Shown piece by piece: positions 34,149 through 62,443 of a stretch of DNA of 64,000 bases. The translations under genes and the position numbers were made by a program. The number at the start of each line of letters is the position of its first letter. Position 1 is the stretch's first letter. Source of the stretch: a virus (taxonomy: Duplodnaviria; Caudoviricetes); the IMG/VR virus record IMGVR_UViG_3300017963_000189. One strand, given 5' to 3'. The notes beneath the pieces were generated by a model, which did not search any database, had not been told where the DNA came from, and worked only from the letters and a program-made list of their open reading frames with translations.

Positions 34149-34557
34149 TTTCTTGTTCCTTTACTTGTACTAAAATGTTTTGTAAAATTTCTTGTACTTG
34201 TCTATCGATCACTTGAGTTGATAAAGACATTCCGTGTGTAAGCACACACTTCCCCTCAGACGAAAATAATGACCATTCCCAAAATTTTCCTTTGAGAAAG
34301 CATATATAAATGCTACTTCCATCTTCAAAAGTAAACTTATAATCTCCGGAATGACTATATCTCATAACATTTATTTTTGGATTTGATTGTAAATGTTTCA
34401 ATACATTTTTTCTCGTCAACCACTTGTGACGTTCAAAAAATATAGATTCCCAAACCATTAGAGCAAATCCCAATGTTGCTGCCATGACATATCCTCCGAG
34501 AATCTGAAATGCTAACTTATATTTGACATCTTCTTTTTTGACACATATGTTTTTCAT
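34132..34557 (-). CDS. membrane-anchored hypothetical protein
   Basis: 1 TM near the N-terminus. Confidence 0.65.
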   Translation of the reverse strand: MKNICVKKEDVKYKLAFQILGGYVMAATLGFALMVWESIFFERHKWLTRKNVLKHLQSNPKINVMRYSHSGDYKFTFEDGSSIYICFLKGKFWEWSLFSSEGKCVLTHGMSLSTQVIDRQVQEILQNILVQVKEQENERNS

Positions 34558-34964
34558 GCACAGTTTTCCTTTGGTTCTATTCCTACACTTGTAATAACAT
34601 AATTATCCACAATAGTAATATTTTCATCTTCGTCTGATTTGGATGTATGACCGAATCCAAATGTAACTATCCGAAAGTTTTCCGCATCCTCAATAATTTT
34701 TTTTAGTTCTTCGCCGCTTGGAGTTCCTATTATTTCAATATCACCTACATAATCGTTATCTACTTCATTGATCTCTTTTACCAGAAACGCCGATTTGTGT
34801 AGTTCAATATCATCATGTTTTGGTTGACCAAGTTGACCAACGGCTTTATCTTCCTCTACTTGTACTTTCACATATTCTTTGAAAGCATTCCGGAGCGCTT
34901 CCTTTGTAAATACCACTCCATTTCCATTAGGCTCGTCAGCTTTGACGTTAAATTTTACTTTCAT
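34554..34964 (-). CDS. T4 gp21-like prohead protease homolog, apparently inactive
   Basis: ADEPNGNG.VF....A.GQLGQP...VGDIEIIGTPSG; ELxHP is QLGQP and SSRG is VTFG. Confidence 0.7.
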   Translation of the reverse strand: MKVKFNVKADEPNGNGVVFTKEALRNAFKEYVKVQVEEDKAVGQLGQPKHDDIELHKSAFLVKEINEVDNDYVGDIEIIGTPSGEELKKIIEDAENFRIVTFGFGHTSKSDEDENITIVDNYVITSVGIEPKENCA

Positions 34965-35407
34965 TGTTCCTCTCCAGGTTTAAATTCGTGACCACAATCA
35001 GGACAAGTTACATATTCGGACATATCCACATCATTCGCAACGTGACACGGTTCATTATTTTTCATTACGAGTTTCCAACTATCTTTTGCTCTTTCGCCTT
35101 GAGCATGTAACGTTCCCTCTAACTCAAAATCGGGATATAAATGTGTCATATAATTGATAATTCCTTGAACGGCGCCCCTCATACCATATGTTTTTTCAGT
35201 TCCATTCCATCTAATACCATCATAATCAGAAGTAAACTCCAAATCAATGTGATAACCATCAAAATCAGCAGCATCCCAGAATCTGGCTACGTCCTCGTCA
35301 AAATCTCTCACATCTTCACCAAGAACTTTGTCTAATCTGGCTATCTGAGCAGCATTCAACATCTTTTTGAATGTCAAACAACCACTAAAATCTGTATTAT
35401 ATCCCAT
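34961..35407 (-). CDS. conserved phage protein
   Basis: MGYNTDF.G...I.WNG.EK.Y...L.G.L.AQGE; C-terminal CPDC. Confidence 0.8.
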   Translation of the reverse strand: MGYNTDFSGCLTFKKMLNAAQIARLDKVLGEDVRDFDEDVARFWDAADFDGYHIDLEFTSDYDGIRWNGTEKTYGMRGAVQGIINYMTHLYPDFELEGTLHAQGERAKDSWKLVMKNNEPCHVANDVDMSEYVTCPDCGHEFKPGEEQ

Positions 35408-35408
35408 A

Positions 35409-35582
35409 TTAAAATCTCCCTTTTATAGATTTATATAACTCGTAAAAGAAGAACGGTGGCCCAATTATAAGACATAATAAAAATACCCAAATCTTTCTTT
35501 TCCAATTAATTTCAGTTTGATTTGAATAAATAATGTAATGTAACAATCCAAGTCCTAACCAAATATATAAAAATTCTTCCAT
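35409..35582 (-). CDS. membrane protein
   Basis: Start moved to MEEFL; 2 TM. Confidence 0.6.
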   Translation of the reverse strand: MEEFLYIWLGLGLLHYIIYSNQTEINWKRKIWVFLLCLIIGPPFFFYELYKSIKGRF

Positions 35583-35583
35583 A

Positions 35584-35799
35584 TTAGTACCGATCCCCGC
35601 CACAAAATTCACCATTAGGTTGATCTTTCTTTTCAATTTTCTCAACGTCAATTTCTACTACACTATGTAGTGGAATGATAATTTCATTATTGTCGCCTCG
35701 TTCCATTGTAAGAATGTTATCTTTTATTCGATAGCGACTAATCTTTTTATACGTTGTTGAACTATCTCTTTTTGTTACTGTCATTGTAAATGTTTTCAT
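35584..35799 (-). CDS. hypothetical protein
   Basis: 71 aa; ATGA overlap. Confidence 0.65.
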   Translation of the reverse strand: MKTFTMTVTKRDSSTTYKKISRYRIKDNILTMERGDNNEIIIPLHSVVEIDVEKIEKKDQPNGEFCGGDRY

Positions 35800-36032
35800 A
35801 CTTTTACCTTTCTTACATAGAACGCTTTTAATTCGTCCTCTCGTTTTCGTAAATCCTTGTCGATATTATACCAGGGTCTGTCGTGTCCTATCACTTCCCA
35901 CATTTCACCTTTCGCCATGAATATAGTTCCTATCTCAAAATCTTTGACATCTTCCCTTTCAAATACAAACGTTATTTCACCACGCGCACCGACTTGATCG
36001 GCGACCGGATGGTATTCTCTCATATTATTCAC
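35796..36032 (-). CDS. hypothetical protein
   Basis: 78 aa in operon. Confidence 0.65.
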   Translation of the reverse strand: MNNMREYHPVADQVGARGEITFVFEREDVKDFEIGTIFMAKGEMWEVIGHDRPWYNIDKDLRKREDELKAFYVRKVKV

Positions 36033-36492
36033 CTATATTAAAATCATACTCACTTACATCTATAACTTTCATATCTTCATCAGGTTCAATGACATACCAA
36101 CCGAAAAAGATGTTGTTTCCATACATTTTTTTCTCAATAATAGTACGATTGTAATCATTTATTCTACGTTTCGCATCATAAATTCCCTCAACCAAACCCT
36201 CATAATATCCATCTTTGGATTCAGCAATAAGATTATCATCAGCATTAATTGTTTGAGATACCGCATTTAACGCTTTCAAATCATGTTGTAGGATTTCGCC
36301 ATCTTTATACGTTCTCAAATCAACGTAAGAACCATATGAACAACCCCAAGAAATTATCATAACCACAATTAAAATTACTGCTGCAGCACCACTAAAAAAC
36401 GCAGCTTCTTCACAATATGTTTTTTGAGCATATTTAACACTCAATGAAATCATAAATATAATTAAACCTACATGAATAAAAAATAATAACAT
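36025..36492 (-). CDS. membrane protein
   Basis: 2 TM plus INDYN.....K....N..FG.Y. Confidence 0.75.
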   Translation of the reverse strand: MLLFFIHVGLIIFMISLSVKYAQKTYCEEAAFFSGAAAVILIVVMIISWGCSYGSYVDLRTYKDGEILQHDLKALNAVSQTINADDNLIAESKDGYYEGLVEGIYDAKRRINDYNRTIIEKKMYGNNIFFGWYVIEPDEDMKVIDVSEYDFNIGE

Positions 36493-36504
36493 AACCTTTT
36501 TCTC

Positions 36505-36699
36505 CTATTTTTTGACTCTTTCATAAAAGATTGAAATAACAGTTCTTGATTGTTTTCCCATTTCAGTAAGACCCATTGATTGATTTGTATCAACAATTTT
36601 CACTCGTTCTAAATGAGTGTCTGATGATTGTAACCAATTATTTATGAGATTTTGTAAACTATCAATATTGTCGCCTTGAAATATTTTACATTGAATCAT
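36505..36699 (-). CDS. small hypothetical protein
   Basis: CKIFQG....LQNLINNWL...ISIFY; GAGGA RBS. Confidence 0.65.
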   Translation of the reverse strand: MIQCKIFQGDNIDSLQNLINNWLQSSDTHLERVKIVDTNQSMGLTEMGKQSRTVISIFYERVKK

Positions 36700-36702
36700 A
36701 TT

Positions 36703-37035
36703 TTAATCCTCTAATTTCAATAAAACACCAGGAGAATTATACCAATTTTCCCCTCTACCCTCTACTTTGACAAGTTCCCCATTTGTATTCGGCAACCAGA
36801 CGTCAGACCCTTTGACATCAGTAAAATAGAGCGCATCAGAATCTGCAGCGGAATATGTAATTGTTATATTACTAAACTTCGCCATGATTTTTCCACCACT
36901 ATATATTACCAATGATCCATCTTCATTAGTAATAGATTCATAATTGGCTTTGTCGTACATCTTCTCACAACTACCACACCCTGTCATTATTGTCGCCAAA
37001 ATAACGATCATAAAGACTTTAAATAAAGTATTCAT
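36703..37035 (-). CDS. putative lipoprotein
   Basis: Start moved to MNTLFK (GAAAGGG RBS); lipobox MTGC. Confidence 0.75.
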   Translation of the reverse strand: MNTLFKVFMIVILATIMTGCGSCEKMYDKANYESITNEDGSLVIYSGGKIMAKFSNITITYSAADSDALYFTDVKGSDVWLPNTNGELVKVEGRGENWYNSPGVLLKLED

Positions 37036-37063
37036 AATAAACCCTTTCTTGATTATATTTATA

Positions 37064-37639
37064 TTATGCGAATAGAATCGCAGCACATAGACCGATGAAA
37101 CCAAAGTAAAATAAAACGTGTCCAACTCGTTCATAATTTTTACTTGAATCATAATTTGAGCCTTCGGCTCTACGATTTATGATTTCATATTCTTTGTCAT
37201 ATGAATTAAATAACTTGCCTTCTTTTTTCAATGTTTTCTTTTTTAAGATTTTGCGGGGAATACAAGTTTTGATATAAGAGTATGTAAATAATAAAGTTCC
37301 AATCAACCAAAGCGGGATTCCAACTAACATTTGTAGGAAATCCGTTCCTATAACTTTCCATGCTAAAATTCCAATGAGAGCCATACCCGGAGTAGATTCA
37401 CCAAATTCAACAGCGTTCCGGTTCAAAGCGTCGAAGATCGCCGTGGCTCCCTCTCCAATTTCTTGACCAATTCCGCCCCATTCTTTAGCAGATTTGACTT
37501 TCTCTTTGACCTCGATTTTAGCTTTTTGATCCGCGTTCAGCATACTTTTTGGAACAGTAACCATTTCAGGTTCCTTTTGTTGTCCAAAAGATACACCAAT
37601 AGCAAGCAATAGAATAAAGACTATAAATAGTTTCTTCAT
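37064..37639 (-). CDS. signal-peptide membrane protein
   Basis: Sec signal plus 2-3 TM segments. Confidence 0.8.
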   Translation of the reverse strand: MKKLFIVFILLLAIGVSFGQQKEPEMVTVPKSMLNADQKAKIEVKEKVKSAKEWGGIGQEIGEGATAIFDALNRNAVEFGESTPGMALIGILAWKVIGTDFLQMLVGIPLWLIGTLLFTYSYIKTCIPRKILKKKTLKKEGKLFNSYDKEYEIINRRAEGSNYDSSKNYERVGHVLFYFGFIGLCAAILFA

Positions 37640-37661
37640 TTTCGTAACCCTTTCTTGTTTG

Positions 37662-38051
37662 TTAGTTTTTTATGTAAAAAATGTTTACACCTATCCATTT
37701 GATTCTTTGTACATCTTTTGTGTCAATTATTTCTTCACCAAAAAAACGTCTTGTTACATTAGACGGTACTAACAATGTATCAGATACACTTTTAGAAATC
37801 ACATCTTCATCGGCATCATACCAATAAAATGTAGTCAAAACTTTGTTATCTACTTCATTTCCTGAGACGTAAACTACCCAACCCATTCTAACATTTACAT
37901 CGTTACTATCCAACATTGTTTGTCTAAACTCCACGATTTCTACTGGCGTCTCTTTGACAACTTGTTTTTTAGCTTGAATAGTTTCAGTAGATTGAGCAAA
38001 AGTTATTGAAGATATTAAAATAACATATAAAATTGTAATCCATTTATTCAT
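37662..38051 (-). CDS. secreted Ig-like beta protein
   Basis: Sec signal ending ITFA; beta-strand pattern. Confidence 0.75.
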   Translation of the reverse strand: MNKWITILYVILISSITFAQSTETIQAKKQVVKETPVEIVEFRQTMLDSNDVNVRMGWVVYVSGNEVDNKVLTTFYWYDADEDVISKSVSDTLLVPSNVTRRFFGEEIIDTKDVQRIKWIGVNIFYIKN

Positions 38052-38073
38052 ATATAACCCTTTCTATTTACGA

Positions 38074-38304
38074 TTAATTTAATTGATTTGATGGTAACTT
38101 TAGATTCTCTACATACTTATTATACGATTCGTCGCCCAAAAAGTTCCTTAAAATTATATTTGCTGCCAAATCACGATGTACATCGTCCATCTTGGATAAA
38201 TCTACATTCGCTGACTCGGCAATCTCAAATAATAAATCCTTTAACTGATGATATTGTTTTATGACCTTTATCCGGTCGTCTGTGATATGTAAAGAACCAC
38301 TCAA
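38074..38304 (-). CDS. hypothetical protein
   Basis: 76 aa in operon. Confidence 0.65.
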   Translation of the reverse strand: MSGSLHITDDRIKVIKQYHQLKDLLFEIAESANVDLSKMDDVHRDLAANIILRNFLGDESYNKYVENLKLPSNQLN

Positions 38305-38523
38305 TTAATTTCCCCTTAACATTTTAAAAAATCCAATAAAAAGCACGATCACTATCATCACGATGATTAGGATCGGCACAAGTATGTGGGCGAGTATAAC
38401 AATCCCATATACTATAAATATAATGATAACAATAAAAAACAATGATAAGATTGTTAAAATGATTGATCCAATAAAAGAACCAAAACTATATACCCATTTA
38501 AATAGTTTATCCATTATCTTCAC
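38305..38523 (-). CDS. very hydrophobic membrane protein
   Basis: Ile-rich, 2 TM. Confidence 0.6.
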   Translation of the reverse strand: MKIMDKLFKWVYSFGSFIGSIILTILSLFFIVIIIFIVYGIVILAHILVPILIIVMIVIVLFIGFFKMLRGN

Positions 38524-38836
38524 TTTCCTTATAATATTTCTTCTCTTTAATGTATTCTTTCGCCCATTCCAAAGCCTCTAACGCGTTACTATATCCGCCC
38601 ACTTCATGTAATATTTGTTGGTAAGATGGTTTTTTCATATCCATTACATGCCATACATTGAATCTCGCTTTATACATAATAATAAGATTCTCAAATTGAT
38701 AACGTTCATCGTTGTTTGTAGGTACGTAATCAGCATGAACCTTTTCACTTCTATCTTTTCGTCTGTCGCCCAAGTAATATGGTTCTTTGCCCTTTCTACG
38801 TTCTTTACCATCCCACTTCTCTACCTTTTTGCCCAT
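38507..38836 (-). CDS. hypothetical protein
   Basis: 109 aa; AAGGAAG RBS. Confidence 0.7.
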   Translation of the reverse strand: MGKKVEKWDGKERRKGKEPYYLGDRRKDRSEKVHADYVPTNNDERYQFENLIIMYKARFNVWHVMDMKKPSYQQILHEVGGYSNALEALEWAKEYIKEKKYYKESEDNG

Positions 38837-38878
38837 TTCACTTCCTTTTGATCTTAATTTTGATTTTTAACTTATATT

Positions 38879-39112
38879 TCATGACATCCATTCTAACTTT
38901 TCTTCCAAAAGTTCTCGCACCCGTTTCCTTGTTTTTTTCAATTCCTTTTCCAACGCAGCAGCATACTCTAACCAAAAGTTCTTTTCCCAAAATAAATGCC
39001 ACTCGGCTTCATTGACCCCAGTAACTCGGCGAGCTTTTGCCGTTCGTTTCCAATGATATTGTAAATATTCATTTTTAGATATTTCTAATATATTATACGC
39101 TGATTCACTCAT
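38879..39112 (-). CDS. hypothetical protein
   Basis: 77 aa; AAGGA RBS. Confidence 0.65.
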   Translation of the reverse strand: MSESAYNILEISKNEYLQYHWKRTAKARRVTGVNEAEWHLFWEKNFWLEYAAALEKELKKTRKRVRELLEEKLEWMS

Positions 39113-39121
39113 TTTTGTTCC

Positions 39122-39666: not shown

Positions 39667-39667
39667 T

Positions 39668-41251: not shown

Positions 41252-42016
41252 TTATAATAAATCTGGACGGTATTTTTCCATAAGATTACGAGACGCTGCA
41301 ATTATTTCATCTTCAACAAAATAACGATTGTAAACTATTATCTTCTCGATGTAACCGTGAAAATCCATATCATCACGATCAATTTGCCAATTACCAATGA
41401 TTAACGGGTCAGCCACAACAGGCGCGATAGTTAATGGATCAACAGGATTGTATACTGTGTTATCACAATTAACTCCATTGACATAAAATATTGATGAAGA
41501 TTGATGGTATCTCCAGTCAGGAACTGACCAACACGCTACATAAGTTGTATCTACTGTTTGAACCGCATTTGTAGTTCCAACTCTACCACCTGGCTGCCAA
41601 TGATCAGTAGCTATATCATAATTATTCCCATATGAAAAGAAACACATTCCATCATAACCGTCAGATGGATTTTGACTTACTAATGTAGCAAATGTACTAT
41701 GTGTCGATTGTTCAAATACGGCGAATACTGTAATAGGAAATTGAGCTAACCCCGAAAATACACTATTATTTTGTGTTTGAAAATAATCATGAACATGAGC
41801 ATTAGGATAATTAAAAGCTAATGCGGGACGACCCGCAGTATTTATGGAAGCTGATGGAGCATTAGTAGAAATACAATGATTTTGTTGTTGACTTAAATCT
41901 TCCCATGTACCATTAAGTCCTGTATAAACATAATTTTCAGCATCCAAGTGTAAAACACAATTAGGATCGGTTGATTTAAAGTTACTCCACAATGGAGCTC
42001 CACTACGAACGGTCAT
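41252..42016 (-). CDS. LamG/ConA-like jelly-roll protein (array member 6)
   Basis: VLHLDA...WEDLS...LIIG....F.G.I..I.VYNR. Confidence 0.8.
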   Translation of the reverse strand: MTVRSGAPLWSNFKSTDPNCVLHLDAENYVYTGLNGTWEDLSQQQNHCISTNAPSASINTAGRPALAFNYPNAHVHDYFQTQNNSVFSGLAQFPITVFAVFEQSTHSTFATLVSQNPSDGYDGMCFFSYGNNYDIATDHWQPGGRVGTTNAVQTVDTTYVACWSVPDWRYHQSSSIFYVNGVNCDNTVYNPVDPLTIAPVVADPLIIGNWQIDRDDMDFHGYIEKIIVYNRYFVEDEIIAASRNLMEKYRPDLL

Positions 42017-42684
42017 ATTTTATACCTCGATCTAAACGCTTCATGAATTCTTTTAATTTCACCTAATGTAAGTTGTCTATTATATAAAAGAGCTTGAGAT
42101 ACCCAACCCCACGGTTGAGAAAGTGCACTATAATTTCCTATTCTATCATGTGATTGTCCGGTAGCATTTCTGGCTACACTACCAACAAAATCACCATTGA
42201 TATAATAATCTGTTGTGTCGCCATCATAGGCATTAGCACAAATAGAAAACCAAGTCTCAGCATGTGGCGAAATATCATAACCAGACGACAACCAACCGCC
42301 ACCATCATTATCATAAAATCCCAATTCATTTGTTGATGTTTGAATAAGAATCATATGATCCTCAGGAGTTCCGCGAAAAAGAGTTCTCCAAGTACCATGA
42401 TCAGCCATCATTTTTGTGAATCCATAATAACAATAATCGTCGCCTAAAGATGATTGAATAGTAGCTGCTGCAGTTATAATATCACTTCCAGAACATTCTA
42501 TTGTAGGTATTCCATCTTCATATACAAATCCTGTACCTGTTATCGTATGAACGCCAATATTTGTCCTATCTCGTGATACATTATAAATACTCGTACCACT
42601 TCCCGGATAACTCACAGTATTGAATACATCAAGATTGATTTCCAATCCGTTTGTAGGTATTTCGGGATTTCCAAACGCACTCAT
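42013..42684 (-). CDS. LamG-like protein (member 5)
   Basis: GLEINLD...SYPGSG...YING...RIG...LYNRQLT. Confidence 0.8.
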   Translation of the reverse strand: MSAFGNPEIPTNGLEINLDVFNTVSYPGSGTSIYNVSRDRTNIGVHTITGTGFVYEDGIPTIECSGSDIITAAATIQSSLGDDYCYYGFTKMMADHGTWRTLFRGTPEDHMILIQTSTNELGFYDNDGGGWLSSGYDISPHAETWFSICANAYDGDTTDYYINGDFVGSVARNATGQSHDRIGNYSALSQPWGWVSQALLYNRQLTLGEIKRIHEAFRSRYKI

Positions 42685-43403
42685 ACTCCGTACCTCACTC
42701 GTTTGGATTGAAAGTTTTGTAATATTTCAACATCAGTCAATACCCTATCATAAAATGCTATAAATCCAATGTCAACTGGTGCATAATAAGAATCTCTATC
42801 ATATGATATTCTACCTATCGCCATTCCTTCCGAACCGATTGTCGGATCACCTGCACCACCACGTAATACCGTTAAATCATCACCGGTATATTGTCTATCA
42901 TTCACCCAAATAGCACAAGATGTGGTTGTAAAAGCTCCTGAAGTTTTAGTCCAATGAACCAAAACCCAATTATTTAATGGATATTGCACTTCCGTAGAAT
43001 ATGTAGATGTTCCCCACAAATCCATTGTTATTCTATTATTATCACCTGCATTATAATTCCAATTCCCAATACCATCTAATGTAGTATCGTCGCCAAATCC
43101 CCAAAATCCTGCGGATAAAAAATCATCAGTTCTATAAAATGCTCCAAATACAGTAAAATTAGGATCACCTTGTAAAGTTGTAGGAGTTGTTATTCGATTA
43201 GCATAATCACTTGAACCATTGAATTGTATTCTCTGTGTCGCCCCACTTCCTGCTAAACCTGCTCCACCATAATTTAAAAAATCTCCACTTCCTGCTAAAT
43301 TCTTAATGGTAGCTCCACTCGTGTAACTCTTTGGATTTGCTCCATCAACCAATACTAAAAGATTTTCCTTAGCAGTTAAATGTCCGCCTGTGTTAAATGC
43401 CAT
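42681..43403 (-). CDS. LamG-like protein (member 4)
   Basis: LLVLVDGANPKSY...FNGSSDY...IG...FYDRVLT. Confidence 0.8.
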   Translation of the reverse strand: MAFNTGGHLTAKENLLVLVDGANPKSYTSGATIKNLAGSGDFLNYGGAGLAGSGATQRIQFNGSSDYANRITTPTTLQGDPNFTVFGAFYRTDDFLSAGFWGFGDDTTLDGIGNWNYNAGDNNRITMDLWGTSTYSTEVQYPLNNWVLVHWTKTSGAFTTTSCAIWVNDRQYTGDDLTVLRGGAGDPTIGSEGMAIGRISYDRDSYYAPVDIGFIAFYDRVLTDVEILQNFQSKRVRYGV

Positions 43404-43405
43404 AT

Positions 43406-44146
43406 CTAAACTCCAAATCTCGCTCTAAATGAATTGAAATATCGTAAAACTTCATCACCAGAAAGTTCCCGATTGTATATTGAACACATATAATAATTTC
43501 CAGCCAATTCTTGAACACCATCACGACTACCAATAGTAAAATGTGTGCCGACATCTACCATTGTAGCATCCAATGTTCCATATGTAGTAGCATCATAAGT
43601 ATCGGCTACAACACCATCAAGATATGAAGTTATTCCTGTCGCAACGGCTGAACCATCATAAGTTGTACAAGCCATATGAATACCATCATTTATATCAGTT
43701 CTACCTGTCCAAGTTCCACGGCGTCTAACAGCTTTTACACTCCATTGATTTATATCATGTTCACCTACACTACCACCAGGATTTGAAGTTGTCCACAAAT
43801 CCCAACCACGCCAATAACCCGCTCCAGCTTTATCTTGCGCCATTTTCGACATCCACGCACCAGTTTCATCCGATGGAATGTTAGCAACGCAAATTAATGT
43901 CTTTGGATCATCATATTCAAAATCTAATAATGTCGCATCTGAACCGGAAATATACAATTCATTAAAAGTTGTCGTTGTAAAAAATCCTGCAGAATCCCAT
44001 GTCGCACCATTTATAGTAACATTAAGTTCATTACCGGACAAATCATACCATATATTACCACTTCCCGGATAACTTTTAGGATTTCCGGCATCTACATGAA
44101 ATATAAGTCCGTCTCTCGGTATTCTCGGCCCAAATCCAAATGTCAT
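43406..44146 (-). CDS. LamG-like protein (member 3)
   Basis: DGLIFHVDAGNPKSYPGSG.IWYDLSGN...YLDG...IYNRELS...RARFGV. Confidence 0.85.
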   Translation of the reverse strand: MTFGFGPRIPRDGLIFHVDAGNPKSYPGSGNIWYDLSGNELNVTINGATWDSAGFFTTTTFNELYISGSDATLLDFEYDDPKTLICVANIPSDETGAWMSKMAQDKAGAGYWRGWDLWTTSNPGGSVGEHDINQWSVKAVRRRGTWTGRTDINDGIHMACTTYDGSAVATGITSYLDGVVADTYDATTYGTLDATMVDVGTHFTIGSRDGVQELAGNYYMCSIYNRELSGDEVLRYFNSFRARFGV

Positions 44147-44883
44147 ACTCCAAACCTCGCTCTCTCAGCATTAAAATTTTCTTCCATTTCATAAGCTGTT
44201 AATTCTCTATTATACGCTCTAACGATTGACACATAATTACCAGCTTCAAAACAATCATACGGTGGATTGGCTGCATAACCCCTTCCAATTCTTATTTGAT
44301 TTGGAGTTGGTGTAATAGCATCCCCATCAGTTTCTGTGTCTACAGAAAGTGCAGCTACTTGTCCATTAATATAACCAATACCATTTTTAAATCCAGCATC
44401 ACCGGTATCTCTTGTCATTCCAAACTGTATCCATTGTGATTGCGGAAGAAGCATTCTATGATAATCATAAGATGGACGGCAATAAAACCAACTCATATCT
44501 TCATCTGTTTCATACGTCATAGCAATTTCTTGATAATACGAAGCATAATCAGTTCCAAGTTTTTCAAAGAATGTAGTACGTGTAGCAGTGCCACCAAAAT
44601 ATACCCAAAATTCAAGTGTCATTGGCCCTGATAAATCTAAATTAGCTCCATTATCATGAGCAAAACATTTTTGTTCATTATATTGAAAACACTGAACTCC
44701 ATTTAACGTTTCAAATGTTAAATCATTGGTTGCAGCAGCTGCTCCAGATTGATAAAAATCAACATTATTTCCACTCAAATCTTTCCACAATGAACTACCA
44801 CTAACATAACTTTTTGGATTTCCGGCGTCCAAATTAAGAATAAGACTTTCTCTTGAGTTTCCTCTACCTATACTCATTGTCAT
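44143..44883 (-). CDS. LamG-like protein (member 2)
   Basis: LILNLDAGNPKSY..G...WKDLSGN...TLEFWV...YING...YNRELT...RARFGV. Confidence 0.85.
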   Translation of the reverse strand: MTMSIGRGNSRESLILNLDAGNPKSYVSGSSLWKDLSGNNVDFYQSGAAAATNDLTFETLNGVQCFQYNEQKCFAHDNGANLDLSGPMTLEFWVYFGGTATRTTFFEKLGTDYASYYQEIAMTYETDEDMSWFYCRPSYDYHRMLLPQSQWIQFGMTRDTGDAGFKNGIGYINGQVAALSVDTETDGDAITPTPNQIRIGRGYAANPPYDCFEAGNYVSIVRAYNRELTAYEMEENFNAERARFGV

Positions 44884-45641
44884 ACGCCAAACCTCGCTCT
44901 ATTCATATGAAAATTATTCAATACTTGTTCATAAGTTAATACTACATCATATATTCGTACTATCGCTATTGACATATCAAAAATCATATGTGTTGCATAC
45001 CACGGCCCCATATTACCTATCGTAATTCTATTACAATCCCGTACACCACCAGCAACCACAGTAGTATCAATATTATTACCATTCCACCAAACATTCCCCG
45101 TACTACCATCGTGAGTAACAACCCAATGATACCAATTTCCAATAACAGGAACAGCAGTTACGCTATCATATTGATATATTCTATTTGTCGAACTTGTTCC
45201 AGGTCCCTCATTTGTCCAAGCCCGAATTGACCGATCAGGTTCTACATTTAAAGCATGACCATCATACGGATCAGATGACGTTTGATCTTCATTTATATCT
45301 TGCCACAATTCGATCACTCTTGGATTATTACCTAATTGATTATCAGCATCTAACCTAAACCAAGCTTCCATTGTGATTGTGTCATTTGGAAATGATAGTG
45401 ATGCCGTGGCAACCAATCCACTTATATTAGCAACAGTAAACTTAAAACATCCACCGGCGTCAGAAGATAAAACAGGAAAAGTTGTGTCACCATCAGCGGC
45501 ATCCTTAAATGCCGTAGAACGTACTTCACCAATAATATCATCCCAATAAGCACTACCAGTTAAATGACTTTTTTTGTTGCTCGCGTCCGCATAAAAAATC
45601 AATCCATCTGTAATTATGTCGCCTCCAATCTTCATTCCCAT
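44880..45641 (-). CDS. LamG-like protein (member 1)
   Basis: IITDGLIFYADASN.KS...TMEAWF...WYHWVVTHDG...IYDVVLT...RARFGV. Confidence 0.85.
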   Translation of the reverse strand: MGMKIGGDIITDGLIFYADASNKKSHLTGSAYWDDIIGEVRSTAFKDAADGDTTFPVLSSDAGGCFKFTVANISGLVATASLSFPNDTITMEAWFRLDADNQLGNNPRVIELWQDINEDQTSSDPYDGHALNVEPDRSIRAWTNEGPGTSSTNRIYQYDSVTAVPVIGNWYHWVVTHDGSTGNVWWNGNNIDTTVVAGGVRDCNRITIGNMGPWYATHMIFDMSIAIVRIYDVVLTYEQVLNNFHMNRARFGV

Positions 45642-46041: not shown

Positions 46042-46551
46042 CTACTTAAAAATTATCTCGTCTAATATTTCACCAGTAACTGGATCTGTAATGTACTCTT
46101 TTCTTCTACCCATTAAATTACCACCTGTAAGATATGAACAATTATAACATAACAATGATAAATTTTCTTTCTTATAATTCGTTCTATCGCCATCTTCATA
46201 AGCCAATAATAATGGGGCTTTTCCATCGGTGATCCTCTTTTCGTCGAATCCACATAAACTACACTTTTCTTCGCCAAGTACCATTTCTTGAATGATTTGA
46301 TCCCTTAACCTTGTTGGATTTAATTTCTTCCCATTAAACTTACCCGCTAAAACATCCTTTAATTCACGGCGTACTCCTTGGCGCATCTTCGGAATTCCCC
46401 TTCCAGACGGATTCTTACCACCCTGAATCCATACATCATATAACTTTGCATACTTCTTGAATGTGTTGTATGAAATGTTTAAATAGCGAGCAGCTTCGCG
46501 GAATGAGCGGGTTTTGTCTATCGCGGCTTTGAGTTGTCGTTCTTCAATCAT
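46042..46551 (-). CDS. HTH + degenerate HNH-fold protein (probable DNA-binding regulator)
   Basis: SFREAARYLNISYNTFKK; CSLC...LLLAYEDGDRTN...ENL.LLCYNC lacks the HNH histidines. Confidence 0.7.
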   Translation of the reverse strand: MIEERQLKAAIDKTRSFREAARYLNISYNTFKKYAKLYDVWIQGGKNPSGRGIPKMRQGVRRELKDVLAGKFNGKKLNPTRLRDQIIQEMVLGEEKCSLCGFDEKRITDGKAPLLLAYEDGDRTNYKKENLSLLCYNCSYLTGGNLMGRRKEYITDPVTGEILDEIIFK

Positions 46552-46857: not shown

Positions 46858-47331
46858 TTAACGTCTTACATATCTTATCATCATACAATATCTCGGTTCA
46901 AATGTTTCAGGATCATAGATCGCTGGAGTAAGTCTAAGAATATAAAAATGAAACATATTCAAATCTAACTCACGAAACTCAGCTTCCATTTCCTCTACAA
47001 TACATTTTAAAGTATATTGTTTCATGTCCTTATTGAATTTAGAATATCGTTCTGAAATATAAGGTTTTAATTTACGAGTTTTAGCAGTAAATAGATCACC
47101 TTGAATATGTTCTGTACAATATTTCATTTGTTTCCAGTTGAACTTTGTCTTATGATTTTTAAGATATTCAAAGAAATCATTTGTTAACATTTCAGATTCT
47201 TCATCTTCTACTGAAACATGACTAATCTCTTTTTCCTTTTCATATACCTTAACTTCTTTTGCATTTGATACTATTACTTTTGTCGCCATTGGTATGGCTA
47301 ACATACTACCTAAAAAATTTCTTCGTCTCAT
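46858..47331 (-). CDS. mini protein with T4 gp23-like capsid segments and RR-signal-like N-terminus
   Basis: MRRRNFLG; TAKTRKLK; TPAIYDPETFEPR...IRY. Confidence 0.65.
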   Translation of the reverse strand: MRRRNFLGSMLAIPMATKVIVSNAKEVKVYEKEKEISHVSVEDEESEMLTNDFFEYLKNHKTKFNWKQMKYCTEHIQGDLFTAKTRKLKPYISERYSKFNKDMKQYTLKCIVEEMEAEFRELDLNMFHFYILRLTPAIYDPETFEPRYCMMIRYVRR

Positions 47332-47334: not shown

Positions 47335-48243
47335 TTACTCCCACGGAATTTCTATTCCTAATCGTTTCGCCTTTTCTTCAAACTCTAATCGTTCTATGTT
47401 GTTTTTTAATGTTCCATCTTCACGTAAATTAAACCAACCATACAAATTCGCTTTTTTAAAGGAATATAAATCTCGTTTAGGTATAAAATCTGGCGATTGT
47501 AATAAATGTATTAACCCAATATCCCGTGCTGTCAATGTAATAGCGTTCAGGCGATAATCCTCAAAGGCGCCCCACGTCAATGGAAATAACTTGGCGACAA
47601 TCTCGTTCCCTATTATCGTAGCATATTCCCTTATCTCTTTCTGAGCATGACTATCCATTCTCAACGATAAAAAATGTAAAAGATTATGCAAATCGATTTT
47701 CCAATACGCCATTGTATATGTGGATAAAGGTAAATCCTTACGGGCTTGTTCCCTGGCAACTCCCTTTTCTAATCGTTGTTTGTATATGTTGTTCGTCAAC
47801 TCGTGTAAATGACTCTCTTGAAATGTTAATCCGGCACCGGTGAGTAGTGGTAAAGTCTCACCACTTCCTTGTTTGTTTATCTTCCCTTGTGTTCGCCAGT
47901 CCTCTGGCTTCGTCATTTGTTTCTCGTCTATCGCCTCAGAATACCTTGTAGAATACTCATTTACACTTGCTGTGCGATGTCTTATCCATTGACGCCAACA
48001 ATCCATTGGTACTTTTACATGGAACTTTAATTCGCATTGCTCAAACGGCGTTGTGTGTCGATGTCTCATAAGGTATCGAATTAAGCCTTCATCTTCATGA
48101 CGTGTCTTTGTTCCCTTTCCATAACTTACTCTGGCTGCTTGCACCACGGCTTCGTCACTACCCATCACATCAACCAAACGAATAAAACCCTTATCTAAAA
48201 CCTTGAACTCTTTCCCTATCAATTCATTTTTTATCTTGTCCAT
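47335..48243 (-). CDS. thyX: flavin-dependent thymidylate synthase
   Basis: AARVSY, H.TPFE, RQWIRHRTASVNEYSTRY, NLLHFLSLR...AQ.EIR. Confidence 0.95.
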   Translation of the reverse strand: MDKIKNELIGKEFKVLDKGFIRLVDVMGSDEAVVQAARVSYGKGTKTRHEDEGLIRYLMRHRHTTPFEQCELKFHVKVPMDCWRQWIRHRTASVNEYSTRYSEAIDEKQMTKPEDWRTQGKINKQGSGETLPLLTGAGLTFQESHLHELTNNIYKQRLEKGVAREQARKDLPLSTYTMAYWKIDLHNLLHFLSLRMDSHAQKEIREYATIIGNEIVAKLFPLTWGAFEDYRLNAITLTARDIGLIHLLQSPDFIPKRDLYSFKKANLYGWFNLREDGTLKNNIERLEFEEKAKRLGIEIPWE

Positions 48244-57134: not shown

Positions 57135-57771
57135 CGTCCTCTCCTTTTGCTTCGTTTCGTTCATCTTCAGTAAAAGCATCCAATTTTCCAGTCGAACGAT
57201 AACACTTAACTTTATCAGCCATTAAAGCATACGAAGTTGTAACACCTTTTTCATTAGCACTATAAGTCAATGAACTACCAGCATCAAAACCATATTGACC
57301 ACCGACTTCAATAGCATCTTGATTAGCTCCAAGAAACATGAATTCCCATTTTTCCTTTTCTTTCATCTCGGTAATCATATTAAAAAGGGCTTCCCTTGTA
57401 TATTCTCGACTGGAATTTTCAAATCCATCGGTAATAACAACAAATATAACTTGTTCAGGTCTATCTTTCTTTTTAGCAGATTTGATAGAACTATAAGTTG
57501 AACTAATTGTTTTACCTACAGCATCCAATAAAGCTGTCAATCCACGAGGCACAAATGTAGTATCATCTAAATCAGCAACAACATTCAAATCCACTCCCGC
57601 AAATTGAGGCTCATATTGATCATCAAATAATACTAATGATACTTCCGCCTTACCTTTTACTTTCCTTTGTTCCTCTAAAAAACTATTAAATCCACCAATA
57701 GTATCATCTTTGACAGACCGCATTGAACCTGAACGATCCAATACCATTACGATTTGTGTAAATTTACTCAT
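57124..57771 (-). CDS. stand-alone vWA domain protein
   Basis: MIDAS LDRSGSM, TALLDA, VITDG.EN.S.EY. Confidence 0.9.
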   Translation of the reverse strand: MSKFTQIVMVLDRSGSMRSVKDDTIGGFNSFLEEQRKVKGKAEVSLVLFDDQYEPQFAGVDLNVVADLDDTTFVPRGLTALLDAVGKTISSTYSSIKSAKKKDRPEQVIFVVITDGFENSSREYTREALFNMITEMKEKEKWEFMFLGANQDAIEVGGQYGFDAGSSLTYSANEKGVTTSYALMADKVKCYRSTGKLDAFTEDERNEAKGEDDGK

Positions 57772-58658
57772 AACCACTCTCCCGTTTTTTCAAAATGTTT
57801 GCGTTGTTCTTCATAACCACTTTTTTTATTTTTATCTGTTTGTTTTCTTAATTCTTCCCACTTCTCTACATCATTCTTGATTTGAGAAAAACCATCTTCT
57901 TTTGTTGACATCCCTTTATAATGAAAAATGAATGCGGTTTTACATAACGCGGGAAAATCGTTGTTTGGTATCAATGTCGCCCAATTAAATTCATCTTCAC
58001 CTTGATACATGATTTTTGATGGATCAAATAAATTTCCATCTTCCCTTTCATACTTTATGATATTTCTATTCATCATAAAGAAAAACCCATTGAACATTTT
58101 CATTCGTATCGGGTCTAAAAGATATAAATTGTTAGCGTCTTTAAATTTTTGTTTCACATCTAAAATAGATTTTTGAACTAATTGATAATTTTTAGGTGTA
58201 TTTATCCACTCCGATTCCGTTCCCGGATAATAGACTTCAATACCTTGAGCATTTCCATTATGACCTGCACCGGCTACACTTGACATTGGAACAACCAACG
58301 AAAACGGCCACTTCTTAAATACCTCAACCATTTCTTTGATCGCACCTTTCGGAACTAAAACATCATTGTTAGAAATAATAATGTATTTATATTCTTTATG
58401 TTCTTTGAAATATTTATATCCTTTATTCCAAGAATCCGTGAGACCTTTTCCTTGATCCTTTTTGATAATGTTTATTCCATTTATGGTACACCACTCAACT
58501 GTCGCATCAGTACTCGCATCGTCCACAACTAATATATCAATTTCTATTCCACTCACAATCTCAGGGGAACTTAACTTGAACGCCGTTAAACGGTTATGTA
58601 ACATTTCCGTATAACTCATTTGATTATACGTTGTTATAACAAATAATATTTTATCCAT
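57768..58658 (-). CDS. GT2-family glycosyltransferase
   Basis: VITTYN, VVDDASTDAT, WNKG, ISNND, IFHYKG. Confidence 0.85.
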   Translation of the reverse strand: MDKILFVITTYNQMSYTEMLHNRLTAFKLSSPEIVSGIEIDILVVDDASTDATVEWCTINGINIIKKDQGKGLTDSWNKGYKYFKEHKEYKYIIISNNDVLVPKGAIKEMVEVFKKWPFSLVVPMSSVAGAGHNGNAQGIEVYYPGTESEWINTPKNYQLVQKSILDVKQKFKDANNLYLLDPIRMKMFNGFFFMMNRNIIKYEREDGNLFDPSKIMYQGEDEFNWATLIPNNDFPALCKTAFIFHYKGMSTKEDGFSQIKNDVEKWEELRKQTDKNKKSGYEEQRKHFEKTGEWL

Positions 58659-58833
58659 TTTGACTTAACCGATTATTATAGATTTTCAATAACTCCGCTA
58701 AAGCTTCTTCTAAAACCGCATGCTGAGAGCTTGGTTCATTCTCCACCAAACTTTTCAAAATGACTAATTGTTTCAGCAGATTCTTTATTTCTTTACTTAC
58801 CTTAAAATTAAGGTTTACTTTTTCTTCTGCCAT
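58651..58833 (-). CDS. ribbon-helix-helix DNA-binding protein
   Basis: KVNLNFKVSKEIKNLLKQ...VLEEAL..LL. Confidence 0.6.
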   Translation of the reverse strand: MAEEKVNLNFKVSKEIKNLLKQLVILKSLVENEPSSQHAVLEEALAELLKIYNNRLSQNG

Positions 58834-58871
58834 GTTTCGTCCTTTTATTTACTTTCTTTATTGTCTATATC

Positions 58872-59864
58872 TTATTTAACTCCCGAAAACACCTTTTGTT
58901 CCAAGAAATTAAAGAAATTCTTTTTCCAAACTTCCTCACTATATACTTCCTTGTAAATTCTCTTTGACTCATTTGAACAAAAATCGTAAAATTCTTTGTC
59001 CTCTTTCAACTTCCTTGCTATTTCTTTAGCATTCCCCAATCCTGCAGTTACATCAACTGACAAATATTCATGACACCAATGTTGTGTATCTATTTGTTCG
59101 TTCCCAATACACGGAATTCCTAAATAAGCACAATTCAATGAAAACGTTCCTGCAGCTGCGGTCGGCATCATATGAATCGCATACTTAAACCCCGATAAAG
59201 TGGACATCCATTCTTTCCAGGTTTTATATTCAATGTGAGATAATCCCTCAACTTGAGCTTCATCCTCTTTCATTCTACCCATAGATGGCGCAAATATCTC
59301 TTGTCCAAATTCTAAGGCAATCATGTATGAATCAAATCCACCATACCAACCAACAAAGTTTCCACCTATCATTGTTCCATGTCGCGCTTCCGGCTCATGC
59401 CAGGGCCCGTTAGGTAGAGCATCCTCAATCATTAATGTACGATTGACAAATATATCCATGTCAGGAAAATGAGCTTCCATATAATCTTTGTCTATTTCAT
59501 TATGTACAAATAAGAAATCCATTGACGCTAATGTAGCAAAATACCATGTCTGAATCGCCATAGAATAATCATGAAAATATTTTACAGGTCCTTCCTGCAT
59601 CCATCCTATCTTTTTCGCAATACGTCTCATTTGACCTACTAAATCAAATCCCTGGTACGCAGATATACGATATAAAATATCTTCTCTCTTTGGTAATATA
59701 ATAATAGCTACATCATAAGAATTATCAGGTACATTCAATATATTTCCTATATTTGTATGAACACCATCACTAGCACAAAACCACGCCATTTCTGTCCGCA
59801 TTTGTTCAAAGTTTCTCGGTACTTTTCCCTCTAAACCGTTTTCAGATAACCATAAAATTTTCAT
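58872..59864 (-). CDS. GT-B-fold glycosyltransferase-like protein
   Basis: In the glyco cluster; C-terminal AGTFSLNCAYLGIPCIG. Confidence 0.65.
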   Translation of the reverse strand: MKILWLSENGLEGKVPRNFEQMRTEMAWFCASDGVHTNIGNILNVPDNSYDVAIIILPKREDILYRISAYQGFDLVGQMRRIAKKIGWMQEGPVKYFHDYSMAIQTWYFATLASMDFLFVHNEIDKDYMEAHFPDMDIFVNRTLMIEDALPNGPWHEPEARHGTMIGGNFVGWYGGFDSYMIALEFGQEIFAPSMGRMKEDEAQVEGLSHIEYKTWKEWMSTLSGFKYAIHMMPTAAAGTFSLNCAYLGIPCIGNEQIDTQHWCHEYLSVDVTAGLGNAKEIARKLKEDKEFYDFCSNESKRIYKEVYSEEVWKKNFFNFLEQKVFSGVK

Positions 59865-60217
59865 TAATCACTCCCATGATTTACTTTAATATCTTTAAAT
59901 CCTTCGCCATACGTTTCAACCATTTGGTTCTTGACGAATACCCTTTTCTTGTTTTGTTCACGAATTAATATGGCACGTCGTCCAACTTCCTCAAGTCCAA
60001 GTTCCTTCTCTCGACCCTTACGTATATCAGATTCCAGATGCCAGATTTCTCCATTAATCTCATATAATTTGTCAACATATTCATGAATGTTTTCATAACC
60101 TCTTAACTCACTTTCATATAACTCAATTTCTTTTCGTAAATCTTCGGATGTCCTTTCTTGTTTTAACATACAAATAGACAACCTATCAGCGATTTCACTT
60201 ATCGGCATTTTAATCAT
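59864..60217 (-). CDS. helical protein (DUF6165-like)
   Basis: ISEIADRLSI..K...L..IN..IW..E..IR...N..R...KN. Confidence 0.6.
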   Translation of the reverse strand: MIKMPISEIADRLSICMLKQERTSEDLRKEIELYESELRGYENIHEYVDKLYEINGEIWHLESDIRKGREKELGLEEVGRRAILIREQNKKRVFVKNQMVETYGEGFKDIKVNHGSD

Positions 60218-60220
60218 AAT

Positions 60221-60421
60221 TTACCCTTTCAAAAGTTCTCTTTTGTCTATTTCGATTCCGCTAAATCCTTCAAACGCTTCAAATGTCATATCAAATTTTA
60301 ACTTCGTGACCACATTTTCAAGTGTCAACATTTTTCTTGCTTCGTCAACCTTTATTACGGTAACTTTATGTTTCTTACCGCCCATATCCATTTCTACTAA
60401 AAGTCCTTTAAGGTTTTTCAT
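60221..60421 (-). CDS. hypothetical protein
   Basis: 66 aa; GGGAGAG RBS. Confidence 0.7.
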   Translation of the reverse strand: MKNLKGLLVEMDMGGKKHKVTVIKVDEARKMLTLENVVTKLKFDMTFEAFEGFSGIEIDKRELLKG

Positions 60422-60433
60422 TATATCTCTCCC

Positions 60434-60661
60434 TCAATGTTTTTCTATTTTTGTTCTTACGATTTTTTCAGGTTGTTCATTAAACAATTTATCAGCATCC
60501 CGTTTTGGATCATAACTGGCACAAGTCTCAGCCATACAATTTTCCCATCCTTTTGCATCATCAGGTAACAAGGGGCAAACCGTAAATTCTTGTCCACAAG
60601 TCTCACAAATATGAATTGATATCGGAGTACCATATTCATTTACACTATTTTTTATTTTCAT
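60434..60661 (-). CDS. Cys-rich conserved phage protein
   Basis: CETCG.EFTVCP...C....C.SYDP.RD. Confidence 0.7.
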   Translation of the reverse strand: MKIKNSVNEYGTPISIHICETCGQEFTVCPLLPDDAKGWENCMAETCASYDPKRDADKLFNEQPEKIVRTKIEKH

Positions 60662-60854
60662 TTCTTTTCTCCCAACGTTTTAAAAAAGAAAATGTCCACC
60701 TAAAATATTTCTTGTTCCCATATTTGATAACCCACCAACTATTCCAGGATTTACTCTTTGGAACGTTTAATCCAATATGTAATCCCTTGTCATATGAATT
60801 ACCACAATAAGAACAAGTACACAATTCTTTATGTTTTTCATTTAATATTGTCAT
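60645..60854 (-). CDS. hypothetical protein
   Basis: CTCSYC; GGAGAA RBS. Confidence 0.55.
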   Translation of the reverse strand: MTILNEKHKELCTCSYCGNSYDKGLHIGLNVPKSKSWNSWWVIKYGNKKYFRWTFSFLKRWEKRNENKK

Positions 60855-61005
60855 TTTAAATTCTCCATTCGCAACATATTAAGAAGTATATCTACTTCAA
60901 TTATTACCCTTGACACATCACATTCAGAATATTTATCCGTATCTACATATTGTTTTTTAAGTTCTTTAATATTGGTTTCTAACTCACTTATTACTTTTTC
61001 TTTTG

Positions 61006-62052
61006 TCATTTTAAATACCCTTGTTGTATCATTGATGTAAAATATTCATTCCAAGTATGAAATCTAAAATTTGGATTATTTAAATTATATAAATTCTCTT
61101 TACTCCATTGTTCTAATATCTTCCACCATTTACCTTTATCCTTTTCGCCACAAAAACCCAATGGATTATCTTCATCTAATATGTAATGTCTCTTTTTTGG
61201 GTGGCGACGATTGTGTACACGTAACAAATTTCTTACGTGAAACTGTATGTAACCATCACCTAATATCTTCTTAGCAATATATCCAAAACTCGTGTCCTCT
61301 CCACTCATAAGTAACGCGTGCGGTATGTTGACTCCACTCTTTACAATGTCACTCCTAAATACTACACACGAACCATCAAACTTTGGATCGGCTAACGGAA
61401 CAATATCTATATCATGTTCTTTTAAACTTCTCTCATTTATCTCGTTCATATCTTCAATCGACATATAACACTTTTCACTGGCTCGATTGTTTAAATTCCA
61501 TTCATCAGTATCCTGGAACGCTTCTTTCGCAAACTCAGGATGTTCCAATACTGCCCATCCCTTATCCCACATTTTACGATAAGCAAAACTTACTACATAT
61601 CTACTTACATTTACTTGATCCGCATACATAGCAACTCGTTCTAAAACTTGAAATGTTTGTTTTGGAAAAAATGAATCAGTTTCGCCCCACATCAAATAAT
61701 CAACTTCATTCGCATAACGATAATTGAAGTCTCGACGACAACGAGCAATACTATATGGTTCAGGACGATCATGACCATCAGACAAAACATAATCATTTAC
61801 TTTTATTCCGGTATTCGTTAATATTTCGATTTGTTTCATATATTCGGTAACCAAATAACCGTCACTCGGTAACGTTTTGTGATCTATCGTTTCAAAATCT
61901 TGACACATACTATAATCAATATGTAAGGTAATATTCTCCGGATTCTCCACATCCAATAACATATTCTCAATCCCTTTTACCCAATCTTTCATCATTTCTA
62001 TTTCATAGAACATAATCAAACAATGGATAGCATAAGTTTTACTTAGTTTCAT
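61006..62052 (-). CDS. GT-A-like glycosyltransferase
   Basis: RRDFN....DYLMWGETD...GED...H.R.HP.KR; cluster context. Confidence 0.6.
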   Translation of the reverse strand: MKLSKTYAIHCLIMFYEIEMMKDWVKGIENMLLDVENPENITLHIDYSMCQDFETIDHKTLPSDGYLVTEYMKQIEILTNTGIKVNDYVLSDGHDRPEPYSIARCRRDFNYRYANEVDYLMWGETDSFFPKQTFQVLERVAMYADQVNVSRYVVSFAYRKMWDKGWAVLEHPEFAKEAFQDTDEWNLNNRASEKCYMSIEDMNEINERSLKEHDIDIVPLADPKFDGSCVVFRSDIVKSGVNIPHALLMSGEDTSFGYIAKKILGDGYIQFHVRNLLRVHNRRHPKKRHYILDEDNPLGFCGEKDKGKWWKILEQWSKENLYNLNNPNFRFHTWNEYFTSMIQQGYLK

Positions 62053-62443
62053 TTTCACCATACCTTTCTATATAATACTCACCAATCAACGCACACAATT
62101 CAAATTCGGCGTCCAACATACCCATTTCCTTGAACGCTTTAAATGTGTCGCCGTGTTTTTCAATGACTTCAAAATATATTTCTTTCATCTTTTCATAATC
62201 AGCTTTTAATTCTTTTCCTTCATCGTATATTCGTCTTACAAGCGGCATTACCATTCCATTAAAATATTCATCACTGTTTTCATCACCAATTACGGCAAGC
62301 GCAGCTTCCTCTAAATATTCAGCTACTTTTTGTTTCCAATCCGTATCTAACCTTTTCTTTCGTAATTCCTCACTGGTTGGATATGGAGTAGTCCTTTTAT
62401 CCAACAATCCCGTCATTTCCCACTTTTTTATTAAATCACTCAT
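62039..62443 (-). CDS. protein resembling the N-terminus of T4-type major capsid protein
   Basis: LIKKWEMTGLLD...K.KVAEYLEE.A...F...VMPLVRRIY. Confidence 0.6.
   Translation of the reverse strand: MSDLIKKWEMTGLLDKRTTPYPTSEELRKKRLDTDWKQKVAEYLEEAALAVIGDENSDEYFNGMVMPLVRRIYDEGKELKADYEKMKEIYFEVIEKHGDTFKAFKEMGMLDAEFELCALIGEYYIERYGENETK

Follow-up and report, generated by a model that had tools for sequence, protein, structure and literature searches.

Three conserved mini-proteins derived from capsid and prohead protease genes outside the head module of a gp23-type jumbo phage

Truncated, 'cryptic' paralogues of the prohead protease are carried by phiKZ-like phages (SPN3US gp117, 201phi2-1 gp206 and PhiPA3 gp143) and were termed unprecedented in 2017 (PMC5694885). 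Diverged duplicates of the HK97 capsid fold that work through capsid-type contacts are represented by the vertex protein gp24 of T4 and by Ccm of SaPIbov5, which redirects capsid size. On the host side, sensing of the phage major capsid protein (MCP) is widespread among bacteria and targets either short motifs (Lit/Gol, CapRel) or the whole HK97 fold (Avs7, Avs8 and Avs10) (PMC13581612). Here we analyze a 64,000-nucleotide stretch of DNA (the window) from the virus record IMGVR_UViG_3300017963_000189, in which an initial annotation had pointed to three small open reading frames (ORFs), ORF1 to ORF3, as a toolkit of degenerate copies of the T4-type head genes for the prohead protease (gp21) and the MCP (gp23). 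All three are present and intact as it had described, and all lie on the minus strand. They descend from head genes, have lost the catalytic or shell-building parts of their parents, are conserved, and are located outside the head module.

ORF1 resembles the phiKZ-like cryptic paralogues in being a short (136-145 amino acids (aa)), diverged second copy located away from the real gene, lacking the C-terminal part and the aligned His, and presumed inactive (PMC5694885). The phiKZ-like proteins, however, belong to the S80 branch and keep the aligned Ser and Asp, whereas ORF1, encoded by a jumbo phage of the gp23 type, is of the S77 (T4-type) branch and has none of the three residues left. It would extend this kind of inactive protease paralogue to the S77 branch. 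For the MCP-derived proteins the nearest analogues are gp24 and Ccm, which are, like ORF2, diverged HK97-fold duplicates. These are complete HK97 folds that enter the shell, whereas ORF2 and ORF3 are partial and could not form a shell by tiling. Neither an overview of jumbo-phage genomics nor targeted searches of the literature yielded a description of conserved MCP-fragment families, and to our knowledge the ORF2 family would be the smallest domain family derived from HK97.

The window makes up the final 64 kb of a 161,620-bp IMG/VR virus record. Its G+C content is 34.6%, and its long ORFs are nearly all on the minus strand. The same phage is present on a 309,378-bp ENA contig and is therefore a jumbo phage. 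Two DNA metagenomes, one from sediment and one from seawater, contain its DNA and may be its source. The 161-kb record opens with baseplate genes and has no head module. The earlier statement that the window holds no intact head genes agrees with our profile and MCP searches of both the window and the 161-kb record: no intact gp23 was detected with PF07068 (Gp23), and PF03420 matched ORF1 only, with no second gp21.

Relatives of the phage, reached through the baseplate wedge protein and then the capsid protein, make up a large clade of phages from aquatic environments, and their genomes reach 369 kb. Two of them, G003 and G004, encode a canonical MCP (251 and 261 bits on PF07068) and a canonical protease with the GELDHP and ISSRG motifs, the true protease gene lying ~5-6 kb from the MCP gene. 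Five further relatives likewise carry a canonical MCP and protease. Since the clade has these genes, ORF1, ORF2 and ORF3 are extra copies and, judged by the relatives, not the only head genes of the phage.

ORF1 (34554..34964, minus strand, 136 aa) has the core fold of an S77 (T4 gp21-type) prohead protease. On Pfam Peptidase_S77 (PF03420) it scores 36.3 bits against a cut-off of 27, with residues 9-124 aligned to profile positions 53-171. It also matches phrog_207 (1.8e-12) and the T4 gp21 structure 5jbl (3e-4), and by tblastn it reaches the annotated gp21 of 107 phage records at ~25% identity. We aligned ORF1 with five true proteases, those of T4, Aeromonas phage 65, Synechococcus phage Bellamy and two clade relatives. 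In the column of the catalytic His (T4 gp21 His85, in GEL(N/D/G)HP) ORF1 has Q47, within GQLGQP; the same column is His in all five true proteases and Gln, Tyr or Met in three other short paralogues. The column of the catalytic Ser (T4 gp21 Ser140, in (V/I)SSRG) is occupied by V100, within RIVTFG, and that of the conserved downstream Asp by I129, in a C-terminal part of the alignment that is less certain. Also missing are ~50 N-terminal and ~40 C-terminal residues of the true proteases (136 versus about 200-215 aa). The description of ORF1 as a gp21-like protease without its catalytic residues was thus borne out.

The gene overlaps both of its neighbours by ATGA, and these neighbours are small non-structural ORFs, not a head module. 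A homologue, P0003 (133 aa, 44% identity, 34.7 bits on PF03420), has the RIVT motif in common with ORF1 and is identical to it over the C-terminal 11 residues; its gene is surrounded by sugar- and methyl-transferase genes. With the ORF1 family profile the true proteases of the clade score 50-59 bits, and T4 gp21 scores 24 bits with ORF1 alone, figures obtained by different methods and only indicative of an origin within the clade. Short S77 copies without the His occur in the huge uncultured phages LR756511 (33.8 bits) and LR756501 (24.7 bits), and weakly in the relative G007. The copy in LR756511.1 (a 595-kb phage; L014:5857-6750, plus strand) is a 297-aa S77-like protein that scores above the cut-off and carries GELGMP, without the catalytic His. 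It starts with a twin-arginine-like leader, so that a head-protein-derived domain and such a leader are found together in an unrelated huge phage.

ORF3 (62039..62443, minus strand, 134 aa) is predicted to be all-helical, lies in a glycosyltransferase cluster and overlaps the downstream gene by 23 nt. Residues 2-75 (62219..62440, minus strand) are collinear with MCP positions ~23-88, the propeptide and N-arm that contain KWExTGLL and PLVRR. In hhalign the clade MCP matched this segment with a probability of 97% (E 6.4e-11), in agreement with the proposal that ORF3 is like a gp23 N-terminus. A second, weak match is short: residues 110-123 (62075..62116, minus strand) correspond to the MCP helix that follows the start of the spine helix (DAExEL..L), with 64% identity over 14 aa by BLASTP and a second hhalign alignment at E 6.8e-4 and a probability of 27%. 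The remainder of ORF3 consists of predicted helices unrelated to the MCP. T4 gp23 found nothing in ORF3 by BLASTP.

Four homologues of ORF3 were found (36-64% identity), among them one encoded by G006, a complete genome of 369 kb. Columns that are invariant across the family include K7, W8, T11, G12, L13, L14 and D15 as well as P67, V69, R70, R71, Y73 and D74, and at the corresponding places the clade MCP has KWE.TGLLEG and LPLVRR. The best-conserved positions of ORF3 are thus MCP motifs, which would be difficult to account for if contacts of the MCP type had lost their importance. When a four-sequence ORF3 profile was used in a six-frame search of five relatives' genomes, it reached the MCP N-terminus in all five, plus one true homologue. 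ORF3-like genes are consistently located inside glycosyltransferase/methyltransferase clusters with overlapping reading frames. Judged from its sequence, ORF3 is a fragment-derived protein and not a capsid protein. In the distant relative G006, a gene for a 199-aa protein with a Tat-like (twin-arginine) leader (L254:2336-2932, minus strand) immediately precedes the ORF3-like gene and a thyX gene, so that the three occur together.

In ORF2 (46858..47331, minus strand, 157 aa), a leader and a linker precede a compact alpha/beta domain that spans residues 40-157. Within this domain, residues 67-120 (46972..47133, minus strand) are collinear with MCP positions ~284-348, which comprise the AKTRKLK strand and the spine helix (hhalign against 82 clade MCPs, 81%, E 1.2e-5), and residues 131-157 (46861..46941, minus strand) with the C-terminal hairpin of the MCP at ~495-522 (97%, E 8.6e-11). 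The view of ORF2 as two joined gp23-like segments therefore stood. ORF2, at 157 aa against about 535 aa for the MCP, has no counterpart of MCP positions ~349-494, and a complete HK97 fold is absent.

A word-indexed protein search returned only ORF2 itself, as if it were an orphan, which was ruled out by an exhaustive HMMER search that recovered a family of 13 cluster representatives (27-45% identity, 130-187 aa). Its features are an RRxFL leader, present in 9 of 14 members, and a linker of variable sequence, followed by a strand of the AKTRKLK type, a helix of acidic character and a TP.IYDP..F.PR.G..IRYA end. In searches of the five relatives' genomes, the MCP C-terminal end was matched in every one both by ORF2 alone and by the family profile, and the spine-helix region was matched by the profile in three. 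One member, P0017, retains more of the spine helix than ORF2 and passes Pfam Gp23 in that segment (27.0 bits, cut-off 24.4). Scans of IMG/VR with the ORF2 family returned MCP genes only; with the ORF1 and ORF3 families they returned no matches.

The AlphaFold2 model built on the ORF2 family alignment has a predicted local distance difference test score (pLDDT) of 83.5, exceeding 90 over residues 41-157 and falling below 55 over residues 1-40, and predicts a single helix-on-sheet domain. In an exhaustive structural search ~45 of the 50 nearest chains were of the HK97 fold (capsid proteins and encapsulins), with modest Z-scores of 3.8-6.5. The neighbours include the phiKZ MCP, lambda gpE, HK97, T4 gp24 (1yue, Z 6.0) and the SaPIbov5 procapsid with Ccm (7rwz, Z 6.4). 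Foldseek gave no significant match to the model in the PDB. Against BFVD it found an ORF2-like fold, at E 9e-4 to 0.1, in uncharacterised small proteins of 80-190 aa from numerous large myophages, T4-like and other. These matches came from phiM9, PM2, phiR1-RT, Merlin, JSE and Atu_ph07, and one weak match is a Tad2-like domain protein of phage PaBG.

Generic searches were of little help with the two MCP-derived proteins. For ORF2 and ORF3 there was no match in Pfam, in PHROGs, among PDB sequences or by tblastn against 50,697 phage records, and look-ups in the ESM Atlas gave nothing above noise. T4 gp23 aligned to ORF2 by BLASTP in a single short, weak high-scoring segment pair (E 0.011). A generic gp23 hidden Markov model (HMM), built from 83 T4- and cyanophage-type MCPs, placed ORF2 at E 1.5, and hhalign to the same profile was weak. 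The likeness of ORF2 and ORF3 is strong to the clade's own MCP type and weak to T4 or cyanophage gp23 profiles, from which we conclude that the pieces come from the MCP gene of the clade. Their proposed gp23 likeness accordingly holds for this MCP type, and not as a strong likeness to the T4 type.

To see whether these matches exceed chance, we searched every six-frame ORF of the 161-kb record with a length of 40 aa or more, 1541 in all. With the MCPs of two relatives as BLASTP queries, ORF3 ranked first (8.5e-5) and ORF2 second (0.004), the third hit being at 0.2. An HMM of the clade MCPs gave the same two ORFs, at 5.1e-5 for ORF3 and 0.003 for ORF2, with the next ORF at 2.3. Control hhalign runs with reversed family alignments reached only E 0.17 and 0.32, and the protease family aligned to the MCP profile only E 0.48. 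The matched segments that establish homology for ORF2 and ORF3 are 23-72 residues long.

All homologues of the three ORFs, which span 27-65% identity, are intact and of similar length. The ratios of nonsynonymous to synonymous substitution rates (dN/dS, NG86) were 0.24 for ORF1 versus P0003, 0.38 for ORF2 versus P0010, and 0.26 and 0.44 for ORF3 versus two homologues, at dS values that are saturated or nearly so. Purifying selection thus maintains all three mini-genes. The conserved intact families, these ratios and the coincidence of the ORF3 invariant columns with MCP motifs agree with the initial annotation in favouring repurposing over decay: the three ORFs are neither working head genes nor decaying ones.

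The same annotation had regarded the three as a single coordinated toolkit, which was not confirmed by their distribution. Co-occurrence was assessed in the five relatives' records, three of which are complete genomes. An ORF3-like gene is present only in G006 and a weak ORF1-like gene only in G007, and no ORF2-like gene is present in any of them, so that the three families do not co-occur. In the window the three genes are 12-15 kb apart, in separate operons, and none of them has the T4-type late-promoter motif TATAAATA directly upstream.

The thyX gene for flavin-dependent thymidylate synthase (47335..48243, minus strand) is directly upstream of ORF2, which starts 3 nt past the thyX stop codon; the family member P0010 is likewise encoded just downstream of a thyX gene. 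Downstream of ORF2, in the segment 46042-46811 (minus strand), there is a gene for a Lar-like restriction-alleviation zinc-ribbon protein (62 aa), whose 28.6 bits equal the cut-off exactly. Next comes a homing-endonuclease-like gene with NUMOD1 (169 aa, 46042-46551). Its presence made it plausible that a homing endonuclease had dragged the end of a capsid gene to the side of thyX; we set this aside, as the ORF2 family is conserved and is found next to thyX in a relative without such a neighbour. Just downstream of the ORF2 operon is a paralogous array of six tandem genes (41252-45641, minus strand; 223-254 aa), several of them with matches to Laminin_G_3 (concanavalin A-like lectin).

The leader of ORF2 (residues 1-24; 47260..47331, minus strand) is twin-arginine-like, with RRxFL followed by a moderately hydrophobic stretch, and the RRxFL leader is found in 9 of the 14 family members. 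The Tat models PF10518 and TIGR01409 do not match ORF2 and give only sub-threshold matches elsewhere. A 215-aa protein encoded at 32794-33441 (minus strand) also has a twin-arginine-like N-terminus (PF10518 15.9 bits, weak), together with weak matches to P-loop nucleoside triphosphatases (NTPases). The presence of a similar leader on a P-loop NTPase-like protein raises doubt as to whether such leaders mean export in this phage.

Two further observations concern the record and its relatives. The IMG/VR record (161.6 kb), which CheckV estimates to be 70% complete, covers roughly half of a phage genome that is 309 kb long or longer. By coordinate arithmetic the record and the 309-kb contig appear to stop at the same place, possibly at a repeat or at a genuine end of the genome. 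The canonical prohead protease of G006 (369 kb; L250:760-1860, plus strand) is a 367-aa frame whose S77 match is split (profile positions 44-95 and 102-190). The insert of ~150 aa begins with a Cys immediately after GELDHPDS, beside the catalytic His, and is intein-like in appearance.

The results presented here allow us to consider what the three proteins might do. We favour the view that they are three independent accessory mini-proteins, partial duplicates of head genes kept by selection, which most likely act as competitive mimics; we put the chances of this view at about even. Their origin would lie in partial duplication of the lineage's own genes, twice of the gp23-type MCP and once of the S77 prohead protease. 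ORF2 has lost the A-domain and N-arm, and ORF1 the catalytic His, Ser and Asp together with both terminal extensions, while ORF3 retains only the propeptide/N-arm region of the MCP and one helix motif. The segments that were retained are ones active in prohead assembly and maturation of T4-type heads. Look-alikes that neither assemble nor catalyse could then engage a partner of their parent, in the role of a pseudo-subunit, pseudo-substrate or pseudo-enzyme. In these terms, ORF3 could mimic the MCP propeptide and N-arm, ORF1 could be a protease core that holds substrates and does not cut them, and ORF2 could be a relic of the P-domain.

Expression of the three proteins would take place together with that of the neighbouring genes. 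The translational coupling or tight packing with thyX and glycosyltransferase genes, the lack of a late-promoter motif directly upstream and the Lar-like gene by ORF2 count in favour of competitive mimicry, as does the widespread sensing of MCPs by bacteria. A role in conflict, directed at host capsid sensors or co-infecting phages, seems somewhat more likely than one that the phage needs for building its own particles, because the distribution of the genes is patchy and accessory and because they sit in non-structural operons.

Several points weigh against this explanation. The MCP and protease comparisons were made with relatives whose baseplate wedge protein is 43-44% identical to that of the phage itself. 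The structure model of ORF3 is of low confidence (pLDDT 56), and its quality does not permit a fold search. ORF2 stands apart from the other two. Sensors of the Avs7 type, which envelop the capsid fold, grip the A-domain (PMC13581612), and this is absent from ORF2. From the model, its domain may belong to a wider family of the same fold, possibly a general small phage domain. The leader, if it is a real export signal, would put ORF2 outside the cytoplasm, away from head assembly and from the known capsid sensors. Mimicry of assembly partners would then be unlikely, and an exported ORF2 may simply reuse the fold for an unrelated purpose.

Other explanations have to be weighed against competitive mimicry. 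One of them is that the proteins serve the phage's own head pathway, ORF3 as a scaffold- or MCP-binding modulator or a protein that gains entry to the prohead, as cargo, by means of its MCP-type N-terminus, and ORF1 as a non-catalytic holder of L/I-x-E leaders. The T4 MCP propeptide is removed at maturation, and the MCP N-terminal motifs of ORF3 lie in the propeptide and hence matter only during prohead assembly. A head-located protease inhibitor also has a precedent in T4, the protein annotated as Inh. We nevertheless consider a role in the head pathway rather unlikely: the genes are far from the head module and absent from most relatives with the same MCP type, and no conserved L/I-x-E protease site was found at the aligned position in the ORF3 family alignment.

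It is also possible, and in our estimate similarly improbable, that the folds have been reused without any mimicry. ORF2 might for instance be exported or associated with the membrane, and ORF3 might serve the sugar-modifying enzymes encoded next to it as an adaptor or subunit. This would fit the twin-arginine-like leader in most of the ORF2 family, the retention of ORF3-like genes in glycosyltransferase/methyltransferase clusters and the ORF2-fold look-alikes that BFVD holds from many phages. It does not explain why the best-conserved positions of ORF3 coincide exactly with MCP motifs, and its export component is weakened by the unmatched Tat profile models and by the same type of leader on the P-loop NTPase-like protein.

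A further explanation is that the fragments are immune decoys that bind capsid or protease sensors of the Lit, CapRel or Avs types without activating them, thereby blunting abortive infection. This was the leading idea of the initial annotation, which also named dominant-negative inhibition of competing or satellite phage assembly and assembly modulation; all three roles are speculative. The premise of the decoy reading, that capsid pieces or surfaces are read by host sensors, is borne out by the MCP-sensing immunity systems, whether motif- or fold-reading, that are widespread in bacteria (PMC13581612). The accessory, patchy nature of the genes and the Lar-like anti-restriction gene adjoining ORF2 would also be in line with decoys. 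The PLVRR segment is kept in ORF3, and we take it to correspond to the start of the T4 gp23 stretch that triggers Lit (Lit/Gol). ORF3 lacks, however, the VSVQPMN block, the most conserved part of that MCP stretch; ORF2 lacks the A-domain gripped by Avs7 and is possibly exported; and a mimic of a trigger could equally raise the alarm early. No phage-encoded capsid-fragment decoy is described in PMC13581612 or in the other literature found by targeted searches, and we judge decoys to be an unlikely explanation of the three genes.

That the ORFs are decaying remnants or chance resemblances, as blank generic searches for ORF2 and ORF3, short matched segments and a homing endonuclease near ORF2 might suggest, is very improbable and already largely refuted by the results, since record-wide searches pick exactly ORF2 and ORF3 and the controls fail, reciprocal searches reach the MCP in five of five genomes, the families are intact and length-conserved with dN/dS below 0.5, and the ORF2 model is confident and HK97-like.

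Competitive mimicry thus remains our preferred explanation. A broader version of it is speculative and, we think, has only a small chance of being right: the gp23-type jumbo lineage of marine and freshwater phages would repeatedly make mimics from its capsid and protease genes, which would neutralize the host's sensors of the core virion proteome or else ruin the heads of co-infecting relatives and satellites, one of these mimics being a Tat-exported mini HK97 domain.

Few parts of phages are as conserved as the capsid proteins and head proteases, which bacteria use as alarm signals. Genes of the kind described here are invisible to standard annotation and emerge only when the capsid protein of the lineage itself is taken for comparison. 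For learning what a minimal HK97 fold can do, the ORF2 family would be useful. As selected mini-copies that can neither build nor cut, the three proteins are candidates for an undescribed form of counter-measure or assembly control based on self-derived mimics.

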